The notes beneath the pieces were generated by a model that saw only the letters and a program-made list of their open reading frames with translations, was not told where the DNA came from and did no database searches. Positions 28,726 through 63,174 of a DNA stretch of 64,000 bases are shown here, one piece after another. The stretch is from Hadesarchaea archaeon (GTDB taxonomy: Archaea > Hadarchaeota > Hadarchaeia > Hadarchaeales > WYZ-LMO6), in assembly GCA_029259185.1 (NCBI GenBank), contig JAPDJF010000001.1:9156-73155 (forward strand), read 5' to 3'. Numbering within the stretch: the first letter of the stretch is position 1; each line of letters opens with the position of its first letter. The position numbers and the translations under genes were made by a program.

Positions 28726-29277
28726 ATGGGGGGGCGGAAAGGGATCAAGAGAGTTTTCATCCCACTTGTGAAGAACGATTTTATCTATGAGGTACTTTCC
28801 TTCTTTCTTTGCATCGGTATCTTGTACTTTTCCCATCAGGGAATCCTGATGTTGGCCCTGGACTGCGATACCCCCCTCATGCCTGTCATCTCGAATAGCA
28901 TGCAACACCACAGCGAGAGCTGGAAAGTACCATACGAGCAGATGGGTTATGACCCCTCCCAGTTTCCGTTTCAGGGGGGATTCGAGAGGGGCGATCTTCT
29001 TGTGATAAAGGGTGTAGATTCACCTAGTGAGATATCGGTCGGAGATGTGGTGGTATACCAGCGAGTGCCGGGTACGATACCGGTGGTGCATAGGGTGCTA
29101 TCGAAGTCAGAAGACGGACAGATCATCGTCCTGAAAGGGGATGCGAATTCGAGTCCGGATCCGAGCATATCTTTCGAGATGGTTAGGGGAAAGGTGATAT
29201 TGGCAATCCCTAACCTCGGTTGGTTCTCTATATCAGTTTGGAAGTACAGATGGCTTTGCACAAAAATTAGCCCCTGA
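28726..29277 (+). CDS. Signal peptidase I, archaeal Sec11-type
   Basis: N-terminal TM segment. Catalytic Ser box VISNSMQH. The GDLLVIKG and KGDANSSPD boxes are present. Confidence 0.7.
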   Translation: MGGRKGIKRVFIPLVKNDFIYEVLSFFLCIGILYFSHQGILMLALDCDTPLMPVISNSMQHHSESWKVPYEQMGYDPSQFPFQGGFERGDLLVIKGVDSPSEISVGDVVVYQRVPGTIPVVHRVLSKSEDGQIIVLKGDANSSPDPSISFEMVRGKVILAIPNLGWFSISVWKYRWLCTKISP

Positions 29278-30406
29278 GGCCAATTTCCGTGCTTGGGGGC
29301 TCGGAGTCCCCCTCAAGGGCCGAAAGCCCTACGGCCCCGTCCCTGAGCCAGTGGCCCAGGAACCTCTCTCCAATGTTTATGGCTCCGTTGAGGTCGGCGT
29401 TGTACTCGAGGCCACACGAGGGACATTTGAAGAAGCCTTGAGAGACCCTTCGTCCTTCGTTTCCGCAGCGGTGGCACGTTCGGCTGGTGTACGCCTCGCC
29501 GGCGTGCACCACGGGGATCCCCTCCCAGAGAGCCTTGTACTCGATGTACCTTGACAGCCGGTGGTGGGGCATCGAGTGCACGATGCGCCTGAACCTCCGC
29601 CCCTTTGCCCGCTTGCGGATTCCCTTCAGATCTCCTATCACGATAACCGAGTTCCGCTCCTTAGCTTCGCTGACGATAGCCCTTGAGATCTTGTGGCACA
29701 GGTCGTCTATTCGCCGGCGCTCCGTTCTGCCTATCCGCTTGATCACCCGCAGTAGCTTGCGCTCGCCGAGTCGCTTTCGGAGCCAAGCGTAGTGGCGCCT
29801 TATCCCCCTTGCTTCCTTCCCGTAGAGCTTGGGGGAGGTGATGTTGGCCTCCTTCTGCAGCGCCACAGACGCCGCGAGAAAGCGCTCCCCCAAGTCCACT
29901 GCGAGGACGCCGGAGGGACGCATCGGCTTGACCCTACGCTTGACCGTGAGGTGGAGGAAGAACCTCCCGTTGCGGTGGACGAGCTGTGAGTCGGAGATCT
30001 CAACCCTACCCGAGGAGAGAAGCTCCTCGTGGGAGCGCCACATCCGCAGCGGGCACCAGATGCGCCCGCCGGGGGTTGAAACGGATACGAAAAACCTGGC
30101 GAACCTGTTTCCGGTGTCGGTGAGCTTGAATGAGTCCTTATCGATGAGGATGGGAGCCTTCCGCCTGTCCCCGGCCTTCCAAGCTAAAGCACGGCAGTAG
30201 TAGGAGGGCAACCTCGTTTGCTCTCTCAGAGTCCGGTAGTCCCTCTCAAGGGCCTGGGCGCGATCCCACTCGGCTTGGAGGTCCTCCAGAAGCTTGCGCT
30301 TGAACCGGGTGAGGCCGTAGAGTTCAGCCCTTATCGTCTTGGAGACCAACATCGAACGTGGTCTGTCGGAACCATTTTAAGTTTTCCGGTATTTTTGTGC
30401 AAAGCG
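29252..30406 (-). mobile_element. TnpB-only transposon, 1155 bp, with 15-bp perfect TIRs (GCTTTGCACAAAAAT) and a 9-bp TSD (AGTACAGAT)
   Basis: AGTACAGAT occurs at 29243-29251 and at 30407-30415, directly abutting the inverted termini GGCTTTGCACAAAAAT ... ATTTTTGTGCAAAGCG. The element encodes a single full-length TnpB. Confidence 0.75.
29267..30352 (-). CDS. tnpB: TnpB (OrfB) RuvC-like RNA-guided endonuclease family protein, apparently intact
   Basis: Length 361 aa. RuvC-I VLAVDLGE. Zinc finger CHRCGNEG...CPSCG. RuvC-III YNADLNGAINIG. Confidence 0.85.
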   Translation of the reverse strand: MLVSKTIRAELYGLTRFKRKLLEDLQAEWDRAQALERDYRTLREQTRLPSYYCRALAWKAGDRRKAPILIDKDSFKLTDTGNRFARFFVSVSTPGGRIWCPLRMWRSHEELLSSGRVEISDSQLVHRNGRFFLHLTVKRRVKPMRPSGVLAVDLGERFLAASVALQKEANITSPKLYGKEARGIRRHYAWLRKRLGERKLLRVIKRIGRTERRRIDDLCHKISRAIVSEAKERNSVIVIGDLKGIRKRAKGRRFRRIVHSMPHHRLSRYIEYKALWEGIPVVHAGEAYTSRTCHRCGNEGRRVSQGFFKCPSCGLEYNADLNGAINIGERFLGHWLRDGAVGLSALEGDSEPPSTEIGLRG

Positions 30407-30464
30407 AGTACAGATGAAAGATTTATTGGTACCCAAGTGAGTAGATTTAGCTTGGAGGCAGGCG

Positions 30465-30785
30465 ATGAGGTTCTGCAAGAAATGTGGTGGTCTGATGGTT
30501 CCCAAGAAGAGTGGGGGAAAGAACGTATTGCTTTGTGAGATGTGTGGAGAGACGGAGGAGGCCGATAGCTCCGGCTACACGTTGGTTCGAAAAGTTGAGG
30601 AAAAAGCGGAAGTGGTGGTGATTGAGAATGAGCCTTCTACCTTGCCGACCACACGCGCCAAGTGTACTAAATGTGGGAATGACAAAGCGTATTGGTGGAT
30701 GAGACAGACGAGGAGTGCGGACGAGCCCTCTACTCGATTCTACAGGTGTACCAAGTGCGGGAATACATGGAGGGAATACGCATAG
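30465..30785 (+). CDS. tfs: Transcription factor S (TFS) / RNAP subunit M
   Basis: N-terminal ribbon MRFCKKCGGLMVP...CEMCG. C-terminal TFIIS-type ribbon CTKCGNDKAYWWMRQTRSADEPSTRFYRCTKCGNTW. Confidence 0.8.
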   Translation: MRFCKKCGGLMVPKKSGGKNVLLCEMCGETEEADSSGYTLVRKVEEKAEVVVIENEPSTLPTTRAKCTKCGNDKAYWWMRQTRSADEPSTRFYRCTKCGNTWREYA

Positions 30786-37523: not shown

Positions 37524-38408
37524 TTAGCCTGGGTCTTGGCTGTACACCCTCAGGGAAGTGTGAGTTTCGTCCCACACGGTGATCTCCTTAAATTCGTCTC
37601 CCTCAACAGGTTTTTTTCTGTAGAGCGAGGGGTCTGGGATATCCGCACTTTTAAACGCTAGGTACCGCCTCCTGCAGTTACTGCAGATCCCACAGTGGAC
37701 TGGGAGTTTTTCCTCCCCGTGGATTACCCAGATATCGCCCGAGTAACAGCTGTAAGTGTATCTCCAATCAACACCCAAGATCTTGCCGATCTTTATACAT
37801 GAGTCTTTATCCAAGTTGATGAAAGGTGCGTACACACGATATCCACCGAAGTGGGTGGAAACTTCGGCGACCCGATTCATTTCCTCGATGAACTCGGGAG
37901 TGTTGTCCTTCATCGCTACCGGGGTTTCCCTCCTTATCCCGATGTAGATATCCCATATTTCCCTGGTGCCTTTGGTGATGTAGCTTTTGAGATCGAAAGA
38001 CTCGGCGTGTGCCAATCCTATCGTGATCAACTGTAGGTTCCGAACGACATCCCACCATCTGAGGATCCTATCGCTGGCCTTTTGGGGATCCCACAGGGCG
38101 TCCACAGGTGTCTCGGGTATTGGCTCATCACTAACGAGTTTACTCGTTGATAGTTCTCCAAGCCATCTCACGTCAATCTCTTTGAATGGAACCTTAAGAA
38201 CCTCAGCGGTTTTTGCTGCACACCATCTTTCGTATTGGACCATTCTCTGTCCGTAGTTAGCGTGGATTATCAGCATCTTTGGAGGATTAACCACCTTTTT
38301 CACATAGTAGGTCATTGGAACACTGTCGGCACCCCCACTAACGAGGCAAACGGCATTTCGCTTTCCGATAACTTCCACCTCCGCGCTTTTCCCAAGTATC
38401 ATTTTCAC
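37524..38408 (-). CDS. queC: 7-cyano-7-deazaguanine synthase QueC-like PP-loop ATPase
   Basis: PP-loop CLVSGGADS. HANYGQR. C-terminal zinc site CGICSNCRRR. Confidence 0.65.
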   Translation of the reverse strand: MKMILGKSAEVEVIGKRNAVCLVSGGADSVPMTYYVKKVVNPPKMLIIHANYGQRMVQYERWCAAKTAEVLKVPFKEIDVRWLGELSTSKLVSDEPIPETPVDALWDPQKASDRILRWWDVVRNLQLITIGLAHAESFDLKSYITKGTREIWDIYIGIRRETPVAMKDNTPEFIEEMNRVAEVSTHFGGYRVYAPFINLDKDSCIKIGKILGVDWRYTYSCYSGDIWVIHGEEKLPVHCGICSNCRRRYLAFKSADIPDPSLYRKKPVEGDEFKEITVWDETHTSLRVYSQDPG

Positions 38409-38455: not shown

Positions 38456-40183
38456 TTAGAAGCTCCTGTATCGATTGGTGATGGGCATCTTACGATCTTT
38501 CCCCAGTGCCCGAGGAGTGATCTTTACGCCTGGGGGCGCTTGCCTGCGCTTGTATTCGTTCCTGTCGACCATGGTTACAACTTTTCTCACGGTTTTTTCA
38601 TCGAACCCAAGATTCAAGATTCCCTCGTATGGGACATCATCTTCCACGTAAGATTTCAGGATAGGATCGAGAACCTCATACGGGGGAAGGGTGTCTTGAT
38701 CTTTCTGGTTCGGTCTCAGTTCGGCACTCGGAGGTTTTTCTAACACCCTTTGCGGTATAACAGGGGATAAGGAATTTCTGTACAGTGCTAGTCTGTAAAC
38801 CCTCGTCTTGAACACATCCTTTAGAACTGCGAAGCCACCCGCCATGTCTCCGTAGAGGGTGGCATAACCCACACTCATCTCACTTTTGTTTCCAGTAGTC
38901 AAGACGAGGGAGCCGAACTTATTCGAAAGCGCCATGAGTATGTTGCCCCTTATCCTCGCTTGGATGTTCTCCTCCGTTACATCCGGTTTTTCCTGTTTGA
39001 AAACCTCTGAGAGACTCCGGAGGTATGCATCAAAAATGCCCTCTATAGAAATTGTGATAGTCTTTATCCCTAGATTCTCTGAAAGTTCCAGCGCATCTTC
39101 CACGGACTCCCTCGAGGTGTAGCGGGAGGGCATGAGAACACCTGTGACGTTTTCTCTTCCAAGAGCATCCACAGCGATGGCGGCAGTTAGAGATGAGTCA
39201 ATACCTCCGCTCAATCCGATGAGCACCCCTTTGAAGCCATTTTTTCTCACATAGTCTCTCGTCCCAACAACGAGTGCTTTGTATACCTCTTCGTCCTCCT
39301 GGAGCGGGCTCGTGAGGCTCGTTTTTATCCGAGGCTTGCTCCTTCGTGCAACTTTCTTTAGCTTTATGGTAACGACCTCTTGATCCCCCTTAAATTTCAG
39401 GATTTCTTTCCGCCTCCGAGGGTCGTGAAGCCTCGTCCTGAACACGGACTCGGGATTAACGTCGACCACGAGGAGCTCTTCTTCGAAAGCCTTCGCCCTA
39501 GCAGTGATTTCACCGCATTCGTTCACCACGAAGCTCTGACCATCGAAAACGAGCTCATCTTGTCCCCCCACCATGTTCACATAAGCTATGATGAGTTCGT
39601 TGTCGAACGCCCTTGTGGAGATCATCTTCTCCTTCAGGTTCCTCTTTCCTGCGTGGTAAGGGGATGCATTGAGGTTGATGGCTATCTGTGCCCCGGCCAG
39701 GGACTGAACGTGCACCGGTCCTTTCGGGTACCAAATATCTTCGCATATGCTTACTCCTATCCTCACCCCGTCCAGTTCAAAAATAACATTCTTGTCTCCA
39801 GCTTGGAAGTAACGATCCTCGTCAAATACACCATAGTTGGGGAGGAACATCTTGTGGTATATCCCAGCGAGTTCACCATCATGGATTAGAGCGGCAGCGT
39901 TATAGATGTCATCACTTTTGTCCACGAAACCGACGAGTGCGGTTATCCCGACGCACTTTTCCTCGATCTTTTCCAGAGTTTTGATGTTATCCTTTATGAA
40001 CTGAGGCTTGAGCAGTAGGTCCTCGGGAGGATATCCGGTCAAACACAGCTCCGGGAATGCTATCAGGTCAACTCCGAGCCTCTTGCCTTCTTCTACTCGC
40101 TTTAAGATTTTTTTTCTGTTTCCTTCTAGATCCCCAACCACTGGGTTTATCTGAGCCAGTCCGATCCTCATTTTATCGACCAC
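38456..40183 (-). CDS. nadE: Glutamine-dependent NAD+ synthetase (CN-hydrolase plus NAD synthetase domains)
   Basis: N-terminal nitrilase-like domain ([12 protein letters not shown]...FPEL). C-terminal PP-loop GLSGGIDSS. Length 575 aa. Confidence 0.85.
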
Positions 40184-40232
40184 AGCTTCACATAGTCTTC
40201 CACTCGTTCAAAATAAGTCTTTCAGAGACCTC

Positions 40233-40823
40233 TGCTTTGCACAAAAATACCGGAAAACTTAAAATGGTTCCGACAGACCACGTTCGATGTTGGCCTCCAA
40301 GACGATAAGAGCTGAACTCTACGGCCTCACCCGGTTCAAGCGCAAGCTTCTGGAGGACCTCCAAGCCGAGTGGGATCGCGCCCAAGCCCCTTGAGAGGCC
40401 GGACTCTGAGAGAGCAAACGAGGCTGCCCTCCTACTACTGCCGTGCTTTAGCCTGGAAGGCTGGCGATGGGCGGAAGGCTCCCATCCTCATCGATAAGGA
40501 CTCATTCAAGCTCACCGACACCGGAAACAGTTCGCCAGGTTTTTCGTATCCGTTTCAACCCCCGGCGGGTGTACGCCGGCGAGGCATACACCAGCAAATG
40601 TGCCACTGGAAACGAAGGACGAAGGGTCTCTCAAGGCTTCTTCAAATGCTCGTCGTGTGGGCTGGAGTACAACGCCGACCTCAACGGAGCCATAAATATT
40701 GGAGAGGGGTTCCTGGGCCACTGGCTCAGGGACGAAGGCGTGGGGCTTTCGGCCCTTAGGGGATCCCGAGCCCCCAAGCACGGAAATTGGCCTCAGGGGC
40801 TAATTTTTTTTGTGCAGAGCCAG
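40233..40823 (+). mobile_element. MITE-like internally deleted derivative of the TnpB transposon, about 590 bp, with both TIRs and a 9-10-bp TSD (AGAGACCTC(T))
   Basis: Left end tGCTTTGCACAAAAATACCGGAAAACTTAAAATGG... Right end ...GGCCTCAGGGGCTAATTTTTTTTGTGCAGAGCC. The flanking direct repeat AGAGACCTCT lies at 40224-40233 and 40824-40833. Only the 5-prime and 3-prime parts of tnpB remain. Confidence 0.7.
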
Positions 40824-40835
40824 AGACCTCTCAGG

Positions 40836-44689: not shown

Positions 44690-44798
44690 GCCCCGGTGGT
44701 GTAGACCGGTCAAGGAGGAAGCTCCGCCGAAATCATACAGCCCTTTCGAGCAACGAGGACAGGCTGTGACGTGGGTTCAAATCCCGCCCGGGGCACCA
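44690..44798 (+). tRNA. tRNA-Glu (anticodon UUC) with two putative introns: about 19 nt in the D-loop (44714-44732) and 12 nt at the canonical 37/38 position (44749-44760). CCA is encoded
   Basis: With both inserts removed, the sequence GCCCCGG-UG-GUGUAGACCGGUCAA-UCAU-A-CAGCC-CUUUCGA-GGCUG-UGAC-GUGGGUUCAAAUCCCGC-CCGGGGC-A-CCA matches the canonical archaeal tRNA-Glu. Without splicing, the D-arm and anticodon stem cannot form. Confidence 0.55.
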
Positions 44799-57558: not shown

Positions 57559-58119
57559 GTGGATCTGTTCAAAAAATATGCGGATTTTTTGCTGCTGAGT
57601 TTTTTCCTCCAAAATCCAACGGGCCAGTTCTATGTAAGAGAACTGGCTGAGAAGTTAGGGCTCAGTCCCTCTAAGGTGAGTGTGGCTTCCAGAGCACTCG
57701 AACTTCAAGGGATATTGAAAAGTGAAGAAAGAGGATTGGCCAAATTTTACAGACTCAACAATGACGTTCCGTTGGTGAAGGCTTTTAAGGTCGTTCACAG
57801 TTTAGCGAAACTCAGCGAAGCTAAGCTCGTCGAAAAACTCTTAGAAAGAGATCCGTCCATAATCTCGATCGCGGTTTATGGAAGCTATGCATCTGGAACG
57901 AACGATGAGAAAAGTGCCATCAAGCTCTTGGTGATCAGTCAGAAAGAAAAAGAAGTGTTTCTAGAGGTATTGAGGAGCATCGAGGAACGTCATGGGATCC
58001 GGCTTGATCTGGAAGTACTCAAGCTCGGGGAGTGGAGAGATCGGGTGAAAAAAAGTGATTCCCTCTATCGAGAAGTTCTTTCCGCCCACATCTTGCTCTT
58101 CGGTTCGAACCTCATCTGA
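57559..58119 (+). CDS. HTH plus minimal nucleotidyltransferase (MNT) protein, the intact paralog of the IS-split gene at 17769/19128
   Basis: N-terminal winged HTH. NT motif IAVYGSYASGTNDEKSAIKLLVIS. Confidence 0.6.
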   Translation: MDLFKKYADFLLLSFFLQNPTGQFYVRELAEKLGLSPSKVSVASRALELQGILKSEERGLAKFYRLNNDVPLVKAFKVVHSLAKLSEAKLVEKLLERDPSIISIAVYGSYASGTNDEKSAIKLLVISQKEKEVFLEVLRSIEERHGIRLDLEVLKLGEWRDRVKKSDSLYREVLSAHILLFGSNLI

Positions 58120-58330: not shown

Positions 58331-58741
58331 TCATCCTTTGGATAGTTCCTTCTCTATGGCCTTTATGAATTCCTTAGCAGAATCCATTGCTCCTTTAGCA
58401 TCGCTTCGTTTGACAGATAATGTGGGGTCACTATAGATGGCTGAGACGAATCGATTGAACTGATCTAAAGAGGTCACGTGCTCTCTCAGCTCAGGGTATC
58501 GACACCGAAGATACTCGATCATCGTTTGTCTTTCAACCTCGCTCACCCCATTTCTGAAGAGGAGAGCCCTAGCGGCATGAAACATGGAGATGAGCGAGGC
58601 CACCACGGCCATGTCCCGGTATCCTAGAGCATTGCTATCTTTCGCCCGCTTTAACCATTCTTTTGCAACTTTCAGGGATCTCATACTCATGTTCAACGGC
58701 AAAACCAATTTGAATTGCGTCTCAAAATTTAAAAATTTCAA
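58331..58741 (-). CDS. HEPN-domain protein, the toxin-type partner of MNT
   Basis: LKVAKEWLKRAKDSNALGYRDMAVVASLISMFHAARALLFRNG is the HEPN helical pattern. It is convergent with the MNT gene. Confidence 0.55.
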   Translation of the reverse strand: MKFLNFETQFKLVLPLNMSMRSLKVAKEWLKRAKDSNALGYRDMAVVASLISMFHAARALLFRNGVSEVERQTMIEYLRCRYPELREHVTSLDQFNRFVSAIYSDPTLSVKRSDAKGAMDSAKEFIKAIEKELSKG

Positions 58742-58748
58742 ACTTTGG

Positions 58749-59185
58749 CGCTTTGCACAAAAATACCGGAAAACTTAAAATGGTTCCGACAGACCACGTT
58801 CGATGTTGGCCTCCAAGACGATAAGAGCTGAACTCTACGGCCTCACCCGGTTCAAGCGCAAGCTTCTGGAGGACCTCCAAGCCGAGTGGGATCGCGCCCA
58901 GGCCCTTGAGAGGGACTACCGGACTCTGAGAGAGCAAACGAGGCATCCACCAGCCGAACGTGCCACCGCTGCGGAAACGAAGGACGAAGGGTCTCTCAAG
59001 GCTTCTTCAAATGCTCGTCGTGTGGGCTGGAGTACAACGCCGACCTCAACGGAGCCATAAATATTGGAGAGGGGTTCTTGGGCCACTGGCTCAGGGACGG
59101 GGGCGTGGGGCTTTCGCCCCTTTAGGGGATCCCGAGCCTCCAAGCACAAAAATTGGCCTCAGGGCTGATTTTTTTGTGCAGAGCC
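58749..59185 (+). mobile_element. Second MITE-like deletion derivative of the TnpB transposon, 437 bp, with TIRs and a 9-bp TSD (AAACTTTGG)
   Basis: AAACTTTGG lies at 58740-58748 and 59186-59194. Ends are cGCTTTGCACAAAAATACCGG... and ...TTTTTTTGTGCAGAGCC. The interior retains only the tnpB 5-prime fragment (MLASKTIRAELYGLT...) and the 3-prime fragment (…CSSCGLEYNADLNGAINIGEG…). Confidence 0.7.
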
Positions 59186-59299
59186 AAACTTTGGTTCCGT
59201 AAAAGTTTTTGAGGTAATCTCATTAATCTCGCTGGTCAAGGCAGGTGGGTGCGACAAAATCCCATGAGGTGATGTGAATGAGCCCCAGAACAAACCCAA

Positions 59300-59509
59300 A
59301 TGCCCGCCCCTGCGGAGCAGGGTTCTTGGAAGGTCGGCTTAAGCCAAAGCAAGAGGCGAGTCTACAAGTGTAGTTCTTGTAGAAAGAGGTTCAATGAGCG
59401 GGTGGGAACGCCGTTCCATGGACTGCACTTCCCAGAGGGGGGCCGGGTATTTCACGTAACAGGTGCGCCCCATCAGGGGCTGTCGAGTTACGATGTGGGT
59501 GCACTGTGA
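59300..59509 (+). pseudogene. Transposase N-terminal zinc-ribbon fragment (IS1/IS1595-like)
   Basis: YKCSSCRKRFNERVGTPFHGLH resembles transposase zinc-ribbon domains. Only 69 aa with no catalytic domain. Confidence 0.3.
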
Positions 59510-59643
59510 CCTGAAATTTTGCTCCAAGCTTTTTTACGGAACCCAAACTTTGGGATAATCCCAAAGTTTGGAGAAGCCCCCCAAACTCTGGAGAAAGAGG
59601 AAAGAAAATGGGAAAAAAAGAAGAAAAAAATTCGTTTTCTTTT

Positions 59644-62511
59644 TTACTTTTTCACTCGCAGTATCGCGATCGCAGCCAGCACCAACGCGATTATCACGAG
59701 GATTATTGCGTAGGTGCCTGTAGGTGTCACAGTCCGTTCCACCGTGAGTGAAATTGCTGGGCTCGTGTTTCCTGCTGCATCGGTGGCAATCAGCGTGATC
59801 ACATTTGATCCCTCGAAGACACGAATGCTTTTGCTGAAGCTCCCGTCAGCCTCCAGCGGGACAGTTATCGAGGTGTCTCCGTAGCTTATGCGCAACTCGA
59901 TCTCCGTGGGTTCGCTCACGTCATCTGTCACTTTGCCGCTCACGATGACTGAACTCTTGCTTGTGCTCAGCGAGGTCACAGCTTTTCCGTCGATCGTCAG
60001 CTCCGAGATCGTCGGTGGGGTGGCATCAGCCTTCACGTAACCGTATAGCGTTCGTTCACTCTCGTTTCCAGCAACATCAGTCTGGCTTACCTCGATCTTG
60101 GTCGTTACTCCGGCTGTTATGTCCAAGCTAGCGACCCATATCCCGTCTCCATCGGAGTCGGTGACCGTCGTCGCCAGAGTGGCGGTGGTCCACGGGGAAA
60201 CGCTTGTGTAGACGTTGATCGTGGCATAGGGTTCGCAAGTACCGCTTATGGTTATCGTTGTCGTATTCAGAGCTTTAGGTTTGTCGGCTGTCGATGTGGG
60301 GTAGCTCGTTGTCAGGACGGGTACACTCGGTGCTTTCGTGTCAACCACGAACGTATAGGACTTGTTGTCCGATTGCAGATTGTCGCCGGCGATCACGAAT
60401 ATGCGGTACGTGTTATCGGGTAATCCTCCGGTGAAGGAACCTATCGCCAGCGGGATGGTGTTTTCGAAGTTCAGTGTGTAGTTGTCATGAGCGAGGGCGT
60501 TCGCTAAAGTCGCTATCACGGTACCATTCTCATACTGGAGTTGTACACTGTAGCCACCGTTGTCGCTGAACGGCAGGTTCTCTACACCTAGGACGGCATC
60601 AGTTATAGTAAGGGTCAACGTGGGAGTGTTGTCGTTGATCACCACACCGTTCTCAAATGCCTTGCCTCCAATCGTGCCGAACGTAATCGTTGGGGCAGTC
60701 TTGTCGAATGTCACATTCTCCACGTTTTCGGTTCCCTCGTTCCCGGCCTTGTCGATTATCTTGATACCGATCACATGGGTTCCTTCGGTCAGTGACAGCT
60801 GGTAGTGCCAGTACCCACCGTCACCTGTCGTGGCAGTGTAAGTGGTATTATCGATGCGGATCTTCACCGTCATTCCCTTCTGAGTCTGGAGTGCTCCAGC
60901 CACGTTGTCCAGCGCACAGTTCTCCAGTAAGTAGGAACCAACATTGGTCTGAACGCCCGGTAGGGCTGCAAGCATGTCTTGCGGGAACCCTGCTATCTGA
61001 TCCAGCACTGGAGCAGGTGGGGCTATTCTGTCGATGGTGAAAGTACCCGTGTTATCGCTGACAGCGGTGTGCCCGACCAGATCTTCAAGCTGGGAGCCGA
61101 TAACATAGACGGTAGCCGTACCGTCACGCTGTATGTTGTCTCCAGTCGTGTAAGTACCAGTCCATACCGTGTTGTCAGCGTTTGGGGTCATCGATATCTG
61201 AACATTTTCTCCGTTGTTCTCAGCTACCATCACGTTTTCGAGCTTAGCCAAGGGTTCACTAGCCGTGACGGTGATGGTCACGGTCACGTTGTCTTTGACC
61301 CAGTCTGGTGACACACTCACACTCACGGTTGGTGGGGTGTTGTCGACCGTCAGCGTGATTTCCTTCTGAACAAGTGCTCCCTGAGCATCGGTGGTTCGCA
61401 CATAGATGGTATAGTCTCCTCCAGCCGTGGGGGTAATCAGGGCGAACGGGAAGTCGAGTTGTGCACCACTCGCTATCTTGTTGTCCCCTATACCAGCCCA
61501 CTCGGCAAAATTGCCTGTGGGTAGCGTGCTCGTGCCTGTGGTCTGAGTCCATCCTACTGGCTGGTTCTCAGCGGCGGCGGCGGTTTCCGAAGTCATGAGG
61601 AGGTTCTCTCCGGATTTTCTAATGACTCGGGTATTCTCGGCTACCACAGCCCCGATCGCATTTTCGAGCTTCACTAGGGTACCCACTGGTAGTACGACCT
61701 CATTTTCGCCGCTGCCACCCACCGTGGCGGGCAACTCCAACAGGGTACCGGCCGCAATGGTCACAGCTTCGACGTTTTCCTTCTTCGCACTCACATCCGT
61801 GACCGTTGTAGAAGTTCCATTGTCGAGCACCACGTTCTCCTCCTCAGCCATCTTCACGTAGGTATTCTCTCCAACCGTTACGTTCCTGTCTGCGGTCAGG
61901 TACACTAGGGTGTTCTCCGGCAACTTCACGATGTTTCCGCTCAGCACGATTACCTGAGTATCGCTGACAAGTTTCACGTCGCCATTGTCCAGCGTGAATT
62001 CATTTTCAACCGTAGTCTCCACATTTTCGCCAGCCAATTGGGCCCTGGAGTCCTGCTGTAACTTCAAGCTAGCATTTTCGGATAGGAGGTACCAAACCCC
62101 CGTAGTCACCGCTCGCACATTATCCCCGGCTTTTCGGATCACAACCGTTCCACTAGGTACGACGATGTTTTCACCAGGCAGCAAGGACAACGTAGTACCA
62201 GCTGGTAGGACAACAATGTTGTCGTTCCCGACTTCACTTCCGCTAAGTTGGACTACACTATCCTTAGGTATCTTCGTTAGGGTGTTGATCGTAAAGGTGG
62301 AGGGAACGACGATCCGAACGTTATCGATCGCGTCAGGCCCCCCGTTCTGGACGGTTATAGTCAAGACCACCGAGGTATTCTCTCTGACCAAGTTCTCGCT
62401 AATGCTCACCGTGGGTTCATGGGTAGCACTGACGCTGGTCGACACCGCCATAGCGGCAATCGACGTCATCATTATGGCTGCGATCACTAGCGCCGCTTTT
62501 TCTTTCATCAT
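59644..62511 (-). CDS. Large surface (S-layer-like) protein with a signal peptide and a C-terminal transmembrane anchor
   Basis: The start is chosen at MMKEKAALVIAAIMMTSIAAMAVSTSVSA, which has an RBS GGAGG upstream. About 900 aa of Thr/Val/Asn-rich beta-type sequence. C-terminus TYAIILVIIALVLAAIAILRVKK. The ORF-track N-terminal extension to 62748 is probably untranslated. Confidence 0.6.
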   Translation of the reverse strand: MMKEKAALVIAAIMMTSIAAMAVSTSVSATHEPTVSISENLVRENTSVVLTITVQNGGPDAIDNVRIVVPSTFTINTLTKIPKDSVVQLSGSEVGNDNIVVLPAGTTLSLLPGENIVVPSGTVVIRKAGDNVRAVTTGVWYLLSENASLKLQQDSRAQLAGENVETTVENEFTLDNGDVKLVSDTQVIVLSGNIVKLPENTLVYLTADRNVTVGENTYVKMAEEENVVLDNGTSTTVTDVSAKKENVEAVTIAAGTLLELPATVGGSGENEVVLPVGTLVKLENAIGAVVAENTRVIRKSGENLLMTSETAAAAENQPVGWTQTTGTSTLPTGNFAEWAGIGDNKIASGAQLDFPFALITPTAGGDYTIYVRTTDAQGALVQKEITLTVDNTPPTVSVSVSPDWVKDNVTVTITVTASEPLAKLENVMVAENNGENVQISMTPNADNTVWTGTYTTGDNIQRDGTATVYVIGSQLEDLVGHTAVSDNTGTFTIDRIAPPAPVLDQIAGFPQDMLAALPGVQTNVGSYLLENCALDNVAGALQTQKGMTVKIRIDNTTYTATTGDGGYWHYQLSLTEGTHVIGIKIIDKAGNEGTENVENVTFDKTAPTITFGTIGGKAFENGVVINDNTPTLTLTITDAVLGVENLPFSDNGGYSVQLQYENGTVIATLANALAHDNYTLNFENTIPLAIGSFTGGLPDNTYRIFVIAGDNLQSDNKSYTFVVDTKAPSVPVLTTSYPTSTADKPKALNTTTITISGTCEPYATINVYTSVSPWTTATLATTVTDSDGDGIWVASLDITAGVTTKIEVSQTDVAGNESERTLYGYVKADATPPTISELTIDGKAVTSLSTSKSSVIVSGKVTDDVSEPTEIELRISYGDTSITVPLEADGSFSKSIRVFEGSNVITLIATDAAGNTSPAISLTVERTVTPTGTYAIILVIIALVLAAIAILRVKK

Positions 62512-62739
62512 TTTTCCTCCTTTTTTCGGTTTAAGCTCTTGGGGGAGGCTATTTAAGCGTTTCGAACTTGATAATTTCAAATCTTCAAAAATGGAGGAGG
62601 TTGGATCCAACTGGTCAAAATCGTTGAATGTTGAAATCGACATCGACATTTGATGAACTTCAGGAGTTGTACCAGAACCGGTCGCTGTATTCGTTAAATC
62701 CGCTCGGGTTATATCGTCAGAGGGAGAGAAAAGAATAAC

Positions 62740-63174
62740 ATGACGCACATGGTGGACATAGGCGAGAAAGAGGACGTGGTGAGGATCGCCCGAGCGGAAG
62801 GTAAAATCCTTCTCAAACCGGAGACCGTGAAAGCGATTTTAGAAAAAAGAGTGGGAAAAGGTGATGTTATGGTGGCAGCTGAGTTGGCTGCAATAAGTGC
62901 AGCGAAGAGGACCCCAGAGTTGATAGTTCACTGTCATCCCATCCCCCTAAGTCAGGTTAAAGCGACCCTCACTCCGGAGAGCGATGGGATACGTGTCTTC
63001 GTGGAGGTGAGAAGTGTGGGAAAAACAGGGGTCGAAATGGAGGCCTTGGTAGGAGCCTCCATAGCGCTGCTGACCGTATGGGATATGGTAAAATCGCTGG
63101 AAAAAGATGAGAAGGGGCAGTATCCTACCACTGCGATCACTGAAATAAAAGTTTTGGAGAAGATCAAAAATTAG
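62740..63174 (+). CDS. moaC: Cyclic pyranopterin monophosphate synthase accessory protein MoaC
   Basis: MVDIGEK...KGDVMVAAELAAISAAKRTPELIVHCHPIPL is the MoaC signature. Confidence 0.85.
   Translation: MTHMVDIGEKEDVVRIARAEGKILLKPETVKAILEKRVGKGDVMVAAELAAISAAKRTPELIVHCHPIPLSQVKATLTPESDGIRVFVEVRSVGKTGVEMEALVGASIALLTVWDMVKSLEKDEKGQYPTTAITEIKVLEKIKN

Follow-up and report, generated by a model that had tools for sequence, protein, structure and literature searches.

A deleted TnpB element with inverted ends and a target-site duplication next to an IS6-family relic in a Hadesarchaea contig

TnpB is usually carried by IS200/IS605 or IS607 elements, which have no inverted ends and make no target-site duplication (PMC4810608, PMC13565253). 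A stretch of 64,000 nucleotides from a Hadesarchaea archaeon (contig JAPDJF010000001.1, positions 9,156 to 73,155 of the forward strand; hereafter the window) carries a TnpB element that has both. The organism is an uncultured archaeon of hydrothermal-type metagenomes and is present in the samples ERZ25515360, ERZ25515408 and ERZ25515786; the likeness of its PCNA to those of Thermococcus and Pyrococcus is only moderate. BLAST and a three-way MAFFT alignment reveal three copies in the window: a full copy of 1155 bp, copy B of 589 bp and copy C of 437 bp. There is very little doubt that copy C, on which we focus here, derives by internal deletion from a TnpB element that has inverted ends and makes duplications, and that it lies beside the relic of an IS6-family insertion sequence (IS). 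As the probable explanation, we propose a non-autonomous module of TnpB and guide RNA for which an IS6-type DDE transposase, acting in trans, provides mobility. The short copy would then be a shell with a guide-RNA scaffold, resembling a miniature inverted-repeat transposable element (MITE).

Direct reading of the sequence places copy C at 58749-59185, where it begins with CGCTTTGCACAAAAA and ends with TTTTTTTGTGCAGAGCC. Its parts are as follows.

58740-58748: left copy of the 9-bp target-site duplication AAACTTTGG, with TTTC directly 5' of it
58749-59185, plus strand: copy C, internally deleted TnpB element, 437 bp
58749-58763, plus strand: left inverted end, CGCTTTGCACAAAAA
58803-58944, plus strand: remnant of tnpB, codons 1-47, with the A/T-rich promoter-like sequence AAAACTTAAAAT upstream
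58939-58944, plus strand: deletion junction in the microhomology CGAGGC, with a loss of about 713 bp relative to the full element
58945-59185, plus strand: retained 3' segment, a zinc-ribbon/RuvC-III coding remnant of tnpB overlapping a guide-RNA (omega-RNA)-like scaffold
59074-59179, plus strand: predicted hairpins H1-H4 (H1 at 59074-59098, H4 at 59144-59179), followed by the 6-nt tail AGAGCC
59171-59185, minus strand: right inverted end, reverse complement GGCTCTGCACAAAAA, with G1, G2 and G7 as in IS6-family ends (PMC6807381)
59186-59194: right copy of the 9-bp duplication AAACTTTGG, whose final two bases are the first two of the inverted end of the adjoining relic

An initial annotation of the locus had described a 437-bp TnpB derivative with the same terminal inverted repeats as its sister copy and a 9-bp duplication, and the sequence, an end-motif scan and the alignment all bear this out. 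The TnpB N-terminal fragment reads through exactly as claimed (MLASKTIRAELYG...REQTRHPPAERATAAETKDEG... in the open reading frame (ORF) 58803-59060), which is an out-of-frame fusion of tnpB remnants that runs into the 3' segment and is without coding meaning. With its 437 bp (under ~600 bp), a single out-of-frame ORF, 14-15-bp inverted ends and AAACTTTGG repeated without mismatch on either side (9 bp), copy C has the size, the non-coding nature, the ends and the duplication of a MITE. The label goes too far in one respect: several copies of the same deleted form were not seen in the window, in the related strains (which hold orthologous copies only) or in one metagenome scan, the rest of the genome not being available.

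The other two copies share these ends and are likewise flanked by duplications.

29252-30406, minus strand: full-length parent-type element, 1155 bp; duplications ATCTGTACT at 29243-29251 and 30407-30415
40233-40821, plus strand: copy B, 589 bp, shortened by another deletion; flanked by the duplication AGAGACCTC (40224-40232 and 40822-40830)

Inverted ends of 14-15 bp are common to all three copies, with 14 of 14 positions identical on opposite strands. A scan of the 64-kb window finds the end motif GCTYTGCACAAAAA at exactly six places, which make up the three inverted pairs 29253/30392, 40234/40807 and 58750/59171. When up to two mismatches are allowed, the window contains seven matches, compared with 0.82 in shuffled sequence, and none of 100 shuffles reached seven. 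The 9-bp direct repeats are perfect around each copy and differ in sequence from copy to copy (ATCTGTACT, AGAGACCTC and AAACTTTGG); a perfect 9-bp flanking repeat has a chance of ~4^-9 per copy. Counting the terminal C of the right end as flank would lengthen the duplication to 10 bp. A two-mismatch match to the end motif, GCTCTACAGAAAAA at 37613-37626, lies inside an ORF, has no partner and was taken as chance.

Measured against the traits of the IS1341 (TnpB-only) group of the IS200/IS605 family, the elements agree in encoding TnpB, which holds for the full copy, copy C keeping fragments only. They depart from the group in having terminal inverted repeats, with a perfect 14-nt repeat at the tips. 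The subterminal hairpin at the right end is simply a piece of the RNA-like scaffold. Instead of lacking a duplication and following a fixed 4-5-nt 5' site, all three copies are flanked by the 9-bp duplication, and the TTTC is 9 bp off.

How, then, did the short copies arise? In the full sequence, the hexamer CGAGGC seen at the junction of copy C occurs at either breakpoint. In copy B, ~554 bp are missing between CCCCGGCGG and CCCCGTGGTG, again at a short microhomology. The three-copy alignment thus agrees with the earlier statement that the internal breakpoints of copy C differ from those of the copy at 40233, and the deletions are not identical. That the latter copy keeps more 3' sequence is correct for ~12 bp only; its main excess over copy C, ~147 bp, is on the 5' side. 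The deletion in C encloses that in B, and both CGAGGC repeats are still present in B, so that C may have come either from a full copy by one 713-bp deletion or from a B-like copy by an extra 161-bp deletion. Of the two origins that had been suggested, independent or through further deletions, either would give the product seen in C.

The ancestry of the short copies can be traced further. Copies B and C have 16 common substitutions relative to the resident full copy, and the orthologous full copy of strain L006, which is 98% identical, carries the same variants. It is therefore this allele type, and not the present full copy, that gave rise to both short copies. Copy C occurs with the same junction and an unchanged duplication in strains that are 99.96% (L009) and 95.8% (L010) identical, which answers the concern that the duplication might be missing from related strains. 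Copy B is likewise present in related contigs, and both copies are old, fixed insertions.

To place the element among its relatives, 80 genomic loci encoding TnpB relatives were fetched, and element boundaries were taken from the comparison of copies. The TnpB clade is mixed and contains canonical as well as inverted-end members. In a Hadesarchaea metagenome-assembled genome (L013; TnpB 62% identical), the inverted ends GGTTCTCTTCGGAA are 14 bp long and the 9-bp duplication TAACTAGCC is perfect. Significant inverted ends are also present in L004, whose TnpB is 74% identical to that of the window (AGGTTC[C/T]GGTAAGTATTCGT), in L015 (GGTTC[A/T]TATGCGTCCGTTGT) and in the Woesearchaeota locus L055 (AGGCT[T/C]TGTAGAA). 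The Micrarchaeota loci L022, L024 and L017 have significant ends of the form NG[C/T]TTTGCACAT (NGCTTTGCACAT), with duplications matching at 7/9 and 8/9 positions in L022 and L024. There are two recurring end types, GGTTC... and GGCTYTG..., and the ends in the window are of the second.

In L024 (Fermentimicrarchaeum), an extra left end of the same element type, GCTTTGCACATAAATTCACC at 627-651, is found 2.3 kb upstream of the TnpB copy and suggests that this genome has more copies, possibly short ones.

The right part of the element resembles a guide RNA. For the 110 nt at the right of the full element, folding predicts four hairpins in a row (z = -3.6), and the same layout is predicted for L013 (z = -4.1) and L004 (z = -3.9). 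Across six sequences, 16 of the 58 predicted pairs show compensatory changes, some in each of H1-H4; in H1, 7 of 10 pairs covary across 11 sequences. The last hairpin contains the tnpB stop codon, and the inner part of the right inverted end serves as its 3' arm; then come a 6-nt tail (AAAGCC, AGAGCC or AGAACC) and the flank. As folded here, hairpins, tail and flank have the layout expected of a TnpB guide RNA, with the flank as the putative guide. This matches the description of a guide-adapter hairpin that spans the transposon end (PMC10691335). In both short copies, the promoter-proximal left end is kept and the 3' boundary is nearly the same. Copy C has an intact H1 and H4, and a double pair-preserving change in H2 (GGGCCG/CGGCCC vs GGGGCG/CGCCCC) separates it from its L010 orthologue; in copy B, H2 is disrupted. 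Going by these predicted structures, the chance that the retained scaffold is functional may fall a little short of even.

The relic next to copy C brings in a candidate for the mobilising enzyme.

59193-59543, plus strand: IS6-family IS relic, internally deleted, 351 bp; ends GGTTCCGTAAAA, duplication CAAACTTT
59300-59509, plus strand: decayed N-terminal zinc-ribbon and helix-turn-helix start of an IS6-family transposase, frameshifted relative to 59278-59373

The relic has a perfect 12-nt inverted repeat, GGTTCCGTAAAA, at 59193-59204 and 59532-59543 and is flanked by an 8-bp duplication, CAAACTTT, at 59185-59192 and 59544-59551. Its ORF had been read as a transposase zinc-ribbon remnant that an HMM search against IS families should place. 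Searched alone against Pfam and NCBIfam, it gave zinc-ribbon matches that were all sub-threshold, and a word-indexed homologue search gave no match; the family was resolved by an exhaustive phmmer search of 1.84 billion proteins, which returned 24 matches. The full-length homologues P0130 and P0171 (293-294 aa) carry DDE_Tnp_IS240 (PF13610), the IS6-family catalytic domain, and the ORF is indeed a transposase remnant. P0171 is the closest relative, with 66% identity over 62 residues. Its contigs (L102/L103, from metagenomes) hold a 1053-bp IS with ends (T)GGTTCCGTAAAAGTTTTG..., which the relic matches over the first 250 and last 47 bp at 85-87% nucleotide identity. The relic is therefore an IS6-family IS that has lost ~700 internal bp and whose gene remnant is frameshifted.

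The ends of IS6-family ISs recur on TnpB elements. The ends of the ISs L094/L095, GGTTCTCTT, coincide over the first 9 nt with those of the TnpB element of L013. L104 ends in AGGTTCYGTAAAAG (AGGTTC[T/C]GTAAAAG), compared with AGGTTCYGGTAAG (AGGTTC[C/T]GGTAAG) in the TnpB element of L004, and L096 ends in GGTTC[T/C]GCG and has an 8-bp duplication. TnpB elements and IS6-family ISs thus have GGTTCTCTT or AGGTTCYG ends in common. The IS6/IS26 consensus is GGTTCTGTTGCAAA, in which G1, G2 and G7 are conserved; archaeal members mostly make 8-bp duplications, and ISH15 makes one of 9 bp (PMC6807381). In the window, the reverse complement of the right end reads GGCT(C/T)TGCACAAAAA and, with G1, G2 and G7 present, follows this pattern. 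Such likeness is good evidence that the TnpB elements use IS6-type ends. An IS26-like match in L046 proved to be a truncated fragment and was of no use.

Copy C and the relic also went into the same site. The reconstructed original target reads ...AAAATTTCAAACTTTGGGATAAT...; insertion of the relic led to the duplication CAAACTTT and that of copy C to AAACTTTGG, with an offset of one base, and the sequence fits either order of insertion. The suspicion of a local insertion hotspot is thereby borne out, with two different elements inserted 1 bp apart in one palindromic 10-bp site. The common 10-bp target fits related transposition machinery for copy C and the relic. The site is the first of several palindromes CCAAA(C/G)TTTGG, which match six times in the window compared with 1.4 expected.

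The 11-bp palindrome is found thrice more past the relic, at 59543, 59561 and 59581 (59543-59591), and those at 59543 and 59561 are paired in inverted orientation across a 7-nt spacer. The palindrome may bind a protein, act as a terminator or be a favoured target for transposition.

IS6/IS26-pattern ends together with 9-bp duplications indicate that insertion most likely proceeded by a DDE-type staggered cut. In the mechanism that we favour, this cut would be made by a DDE transposase supplied in trans, for which an archaeal IS6-family (DDE_Tnp_IS240) enzyme is the best candidate; judging by the ends, it is reasonably likely that an IS6-type transposase mobilises these TnpB elements. We infer this enzyme, as we do any mobility of the short copy after the deletion. 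In copy C, slippage or recombination at the 6-nt microhomology removed most of tnpB. Both ends were spared, along with 195 bp on the left (promoter region and 47 codons) and ~240 bp on the right (four-hairpin scaffold). The resulting shell may still be recognisable by the transposase, and its transcript, if expressed, could be a guide RNA for the TnpB encoded at 29267-30352.

Several observations weigh against mobilisation in trans by an IS6-type enzyme, and three alternatives draw on some of them. The left end begins with C or T and not with G. The duplication is 9 bp long in the three window copies and in L013, as against 8 bp in the IS6 relic and L096. A gene for DDE_Tnp_IS240 or another DDE transposase is absent from the window and from every TnpB element examined; the full copy encodes TnpB only, and the only trace of a transposase in the window is the zinc-ribbon remnant inside the relic. 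The searches turned up no intact IS that ends exactly in GGCTYTGCACAAAAA; the IS6-family ISs found elsewhere have ends that are similar, not identical. Neighbouring genes led to no empty site: related contigs all carry the insertions or break inside them. The inverted-end relatives L015, L017 and L055 have no duplication. As for the RNA, searching the region against Rfam returned no family at gathering score and chance-level matches only, and gene conversion among copies could mimic the compensatory change in H2.

The alternative that survives best is that copy C is dead: a full-length insertion was deleted in place, and the short copy, which has never moved and makes no functional RNA, just lingers between genes. 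Each deletion form occurs at one locus only, the related strains holding orthologous copies, and a metagenome scan with the left end matched solely the already known full-copy locus. The insertion is old, as the same copy and junction are fixed in the 99.96%- and 95.8%-identical strains, and decay is evident in the out-of-frame ORF of copy C, the disrupted H2 of copy B and the frameshifted tnpB of the orthologous full copy in L006. We nevertheless regard complete inertness as unlikely, given that H1 and H4 are intact in C and that the H2 pair is compensated relative to the orthologue. Moreover, the 3' boundaries of B and C lie 12 bp apart and their 5' breakpoints 147 bp apart, a pattern that selection for the scaffold or for mobility ends would give. 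This alternative concerns present activity only and is compatible with the same origin and anatomy.

A second possibility is that the ends are recognised by another DDE family with 8-9-bp duplications and GG...TG ends, such as IS1 or IS1595, and that the likeness to IS6 is superficial. Taken alone, the relic ORF matches only IS1 and IS1595 zinc-domain models, with little significance (NCBIfam E = 0.02 and 0.07). IS1 typically makes duplications of 9 bp. Harmer and Hall, moreover, note that G1, G2 and G7 are also found in other families and question the kinship of archaeal 'IS6' elements with IS26 (PMC6807381). The full-length homologues of the relic ORF, however, carry DDE_Tnp_IS240 and not the catalytic domains of IS1 or IS1595, the IS ends GGTTCTCTT and AGGTTCYG match the TnpB elements of L013 and L004 over 8-9 nt, and an IS1 or IS1595 transposase was not seen in any locus, which makes this possibility improbable.

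Still less probable is a palindrome-associated element (PATE) of the ordinary IS200/IS605 type, for which a Y1 TnpA from elsewhere in the genome would act on single-stranded DNA and the inverted ends and repeats would be incidental. The TnpB family is the one normally found in IS200/IS605, and a Y1 TnpA gene adjoins TnpB in 5 of the 80 loci (L025, L039, L049, L080 and L089), in relatives at 35-43% identity; a recurrent DDE gene beside TnpB was found in none of the 80. Four loci (L030, L035, L040 and L060) start directly after TTAC and have asymmetric ends. The TTTC 5' of the repeat in all three window copies resembles a fixed target or a transposon-adjacent motif (TAM), and the right end has a subterminal hairpin. 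All this is outweighed by the perfect 9-bp repeats, of three different sequences, around all three copies and in L013, since Y1 enzymes make no duplication (PMC4810608, PMC13565253), by ends that lie on opposite strands as genuine inverted repeats, by the 9 variable bases that separate TTTC from the element and by the absence of a TnpA gene from the window.

The TTTC itself, directly 5' of the 9-bp duplication in each window copy, leads to an extension of the IS6-type reading. The left ends of all three copies lie 50-59 bp from the start codon of a divergent gene (a TFS-like gene at 30465, an ORF at 40183 and the HEPN gene at 58690). The common TTTC may reflect insertion beside promoters, a preference of the transposase or a TAM. 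As a general TAM it has no support in the relatives L013, L022 and L024, where no common motif is seen. Rejected was the idea that TnpB cuts both ends with the inverted end as guide: the scaffold reaches to 6 nt from the tip, and no common motif lies inside the two ends.

In the three flanks (30416-30465, 40183-40223 and 58690-58739), the neighbour's strand reads GAAA followed by T/A-rich sequence, resembling an archaeal B recognition element (BRE) and TATA box.

We tentatively extend the favoured mechanism as follows, while considering the extended version doubtful as a whole. An archaeal lineage of TnpB and guide RNA would have swapped its Y1 ends for IS6-type inverted ends and built the right end into the guide-adjacent hairpin. 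Modules and mini-copies made of promoter and RNA would be mobilised in trans and kept by selection. The guide would start with the 9-bp duplication, and TTTC would be the TAM, with TnpB cutting alleles that lose the element; TTTC followed by AAACTTTGGTTCCGTAAA would then be a candidate substrate of TnpB.

Some of these features have precedents. TnpB inside inverted-repeat DDE-type transposons, and solo TnpBs with the same ends, are known (Altae-Tran et al. 2023, PMC10691335), and ISL2, IS630 and IS1031 are named as DDE partners (PMC13565253). As in these branches, TnpB lies here between inverted terminal repeats, the 3' end of tnpB is within 250 bp of the transposon end, the predicted guide-adjacent hairpin spans that end, and solo copies are presumed to be mobilised in trans (PMC10691335). 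The window element differs in that its ends follow the IS6/IS240 pattern, a partner family not named in the available parts of PMC10691335 and PMC13565253. In addition, the clade members examined have no transposase gene in the same element, and the clade also holds Y1-type members.

Short non-coding deletion derivatives that keep both termini and part of the 3' coding region of tnpB, with deletions between short direct repeats, are known from the PATEs and IS1341-type elements of Haloquadratum (PMC3119063). Those haloarchaeal PATEs have no inverted ends, no duplication and a 4-6-nt target, unlike the window element with its ends of 14-15 bp and 9-bp duplication. With archaeal IS6/IS26 ISs (Harmer & Hall 2019, PMC6807381; L094-L097, L102-L104), the element shares the GG start, G7, the A-rich inner part and duplications of 8-9 bp, and a relic of such an IS occupies the target site of copy C; it differs in encoding TnpB, in its 9-bp instead of the usual 8-bp duplication and in the C or T at the left terminus.

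Comparable to the retained scaffold are sRkB/sRkC and sRk48/52 of Pyrococcus abyssi, in a related archaeal group. These repeated intergenic loci match the sense 3' end of orphan OrfB (TnpB) genes and resemble stand-alone guide-RNA-like remnants (PMC3124441). Their expression as structured small RNAs and binding of L7Ae were shown in that study, whereas the scaffold in the window is a predicted one; inverted ends or duplications, as in the window copies, are not described for the P. abyssi loci (PMC3124441). A parallel can also be drawn with Fanzor and TnpB in eukaryotic DDE transposons, where an RNA-guided nuclease resides in transposons with inverted ends and duplications. Here the host is prokaryotic, the transposase is not in cis and the transposon family is different.

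Copy C itself is an ordinary decayed copy. The more interesting point, which the initial annotation did not raise, is that a TnpB element is anomalous in having inverted ends and duplications. TnpB, from which Cas12 descends, has the accepted role of restoring the transposon after scarless excision by Y1 or serine transposases. IS6-type elements transpose by a copy-in route and make duplications. TnpB with a guide-RNA scaffold on what appear to be IS6-type ends raises the question of what TnpB does in a non-excising transposon. The clade holds closely related Y1-type and inverted-end elements, which makes the end swap open to direct dissection. The locus may also provide an example of a guide-RNA hairpin that has absorbed a transposase-binding end, and of putative stand-alone guide-RNA cassettes arising by deletion. 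For annotation, it is a warning that TnpB-only elements in these archaea may be delimited by inverted ends and duplications.

The only gene of the full copy encodes the TnpB to which a guide RNA from copy C might be directed.

29267-30352, minus strand: intact tnpB, 361 aa; D152, E285 and D319, with a Cys4 zinc finger

The protein matches the Pfam model Cas12f1-like_TNB (PF07282, 2.6e-23) and the NCBIfam model guided_TnpB (NF040570, 8e-50), and scores 28.8 bits against PF01385, just below the cut-off of 30.5. An exact look-up of its sequence found no database record, and its closest database relatives have at most 75% identity. At E <= 1e-5 there are 728 relatives, which are solo TnpB proteins of 340-400 aa; those with a source name are archaeal. 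D152, E285, D319 and the four cysteines are invariant in an alignment of 37 sequences. The position of the canonical RuvC-II glutamate is a glycine (VIVIGDLKG), and an invariant glutamate lies six residues before the zinc finger (GEAYTSRTC). A rearranged RuvC-II glutamate is described for some TnpB clades and Fanzors (PMC10691335, PMC13565253), and the arrangement seen here, GEAYTSRTC with G at the canonical site, is like that of Fanzor (PMC13565253). As the catalytic and zinc-finger residues are in place, the tnpB of the full copy looks functional in the strain of the window. In strain L006, the orthologous full copy (1800-2960) occupies the same site with the same duplication, and its tnpB is broken by several frameshifts.

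Insertion of the full copy struck precisely the stop codon of a signal-peptidase-like ORF, 28726-29277. When the empty site is reconstructed, the product ends in ...WKYR* (175 aa); it is now 183 aa long, and its last 8 residues are encoded by the element.

On the other side of copy C lies what had been called a HEPN/MNT pair. The MNT gene (57559-58119, plus strand), which has an N-terminal winged-helix domain, and the HEPN gene (58331-58690, minus strand) do adjoin, ~210 bp apart, but they are convergent and so do not form an operon or a classical co-transcribed pair.

Beyond the relic, the hotspot is bordered by the 3' end of a T/V/S-rich ORF of 1034 aa (59644-62748, minus strand). The product of this locus in L009/L010 has Big-like and Glucodextran_B domain matches and is probably a surface protein.

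Elsewhere in the window, a tRNA match at 44690-44795 (Rfam, 41 bits) is 106 nt long, far above standard tRNA length, and probably contains an intron; tRNA introns are common in archaea.

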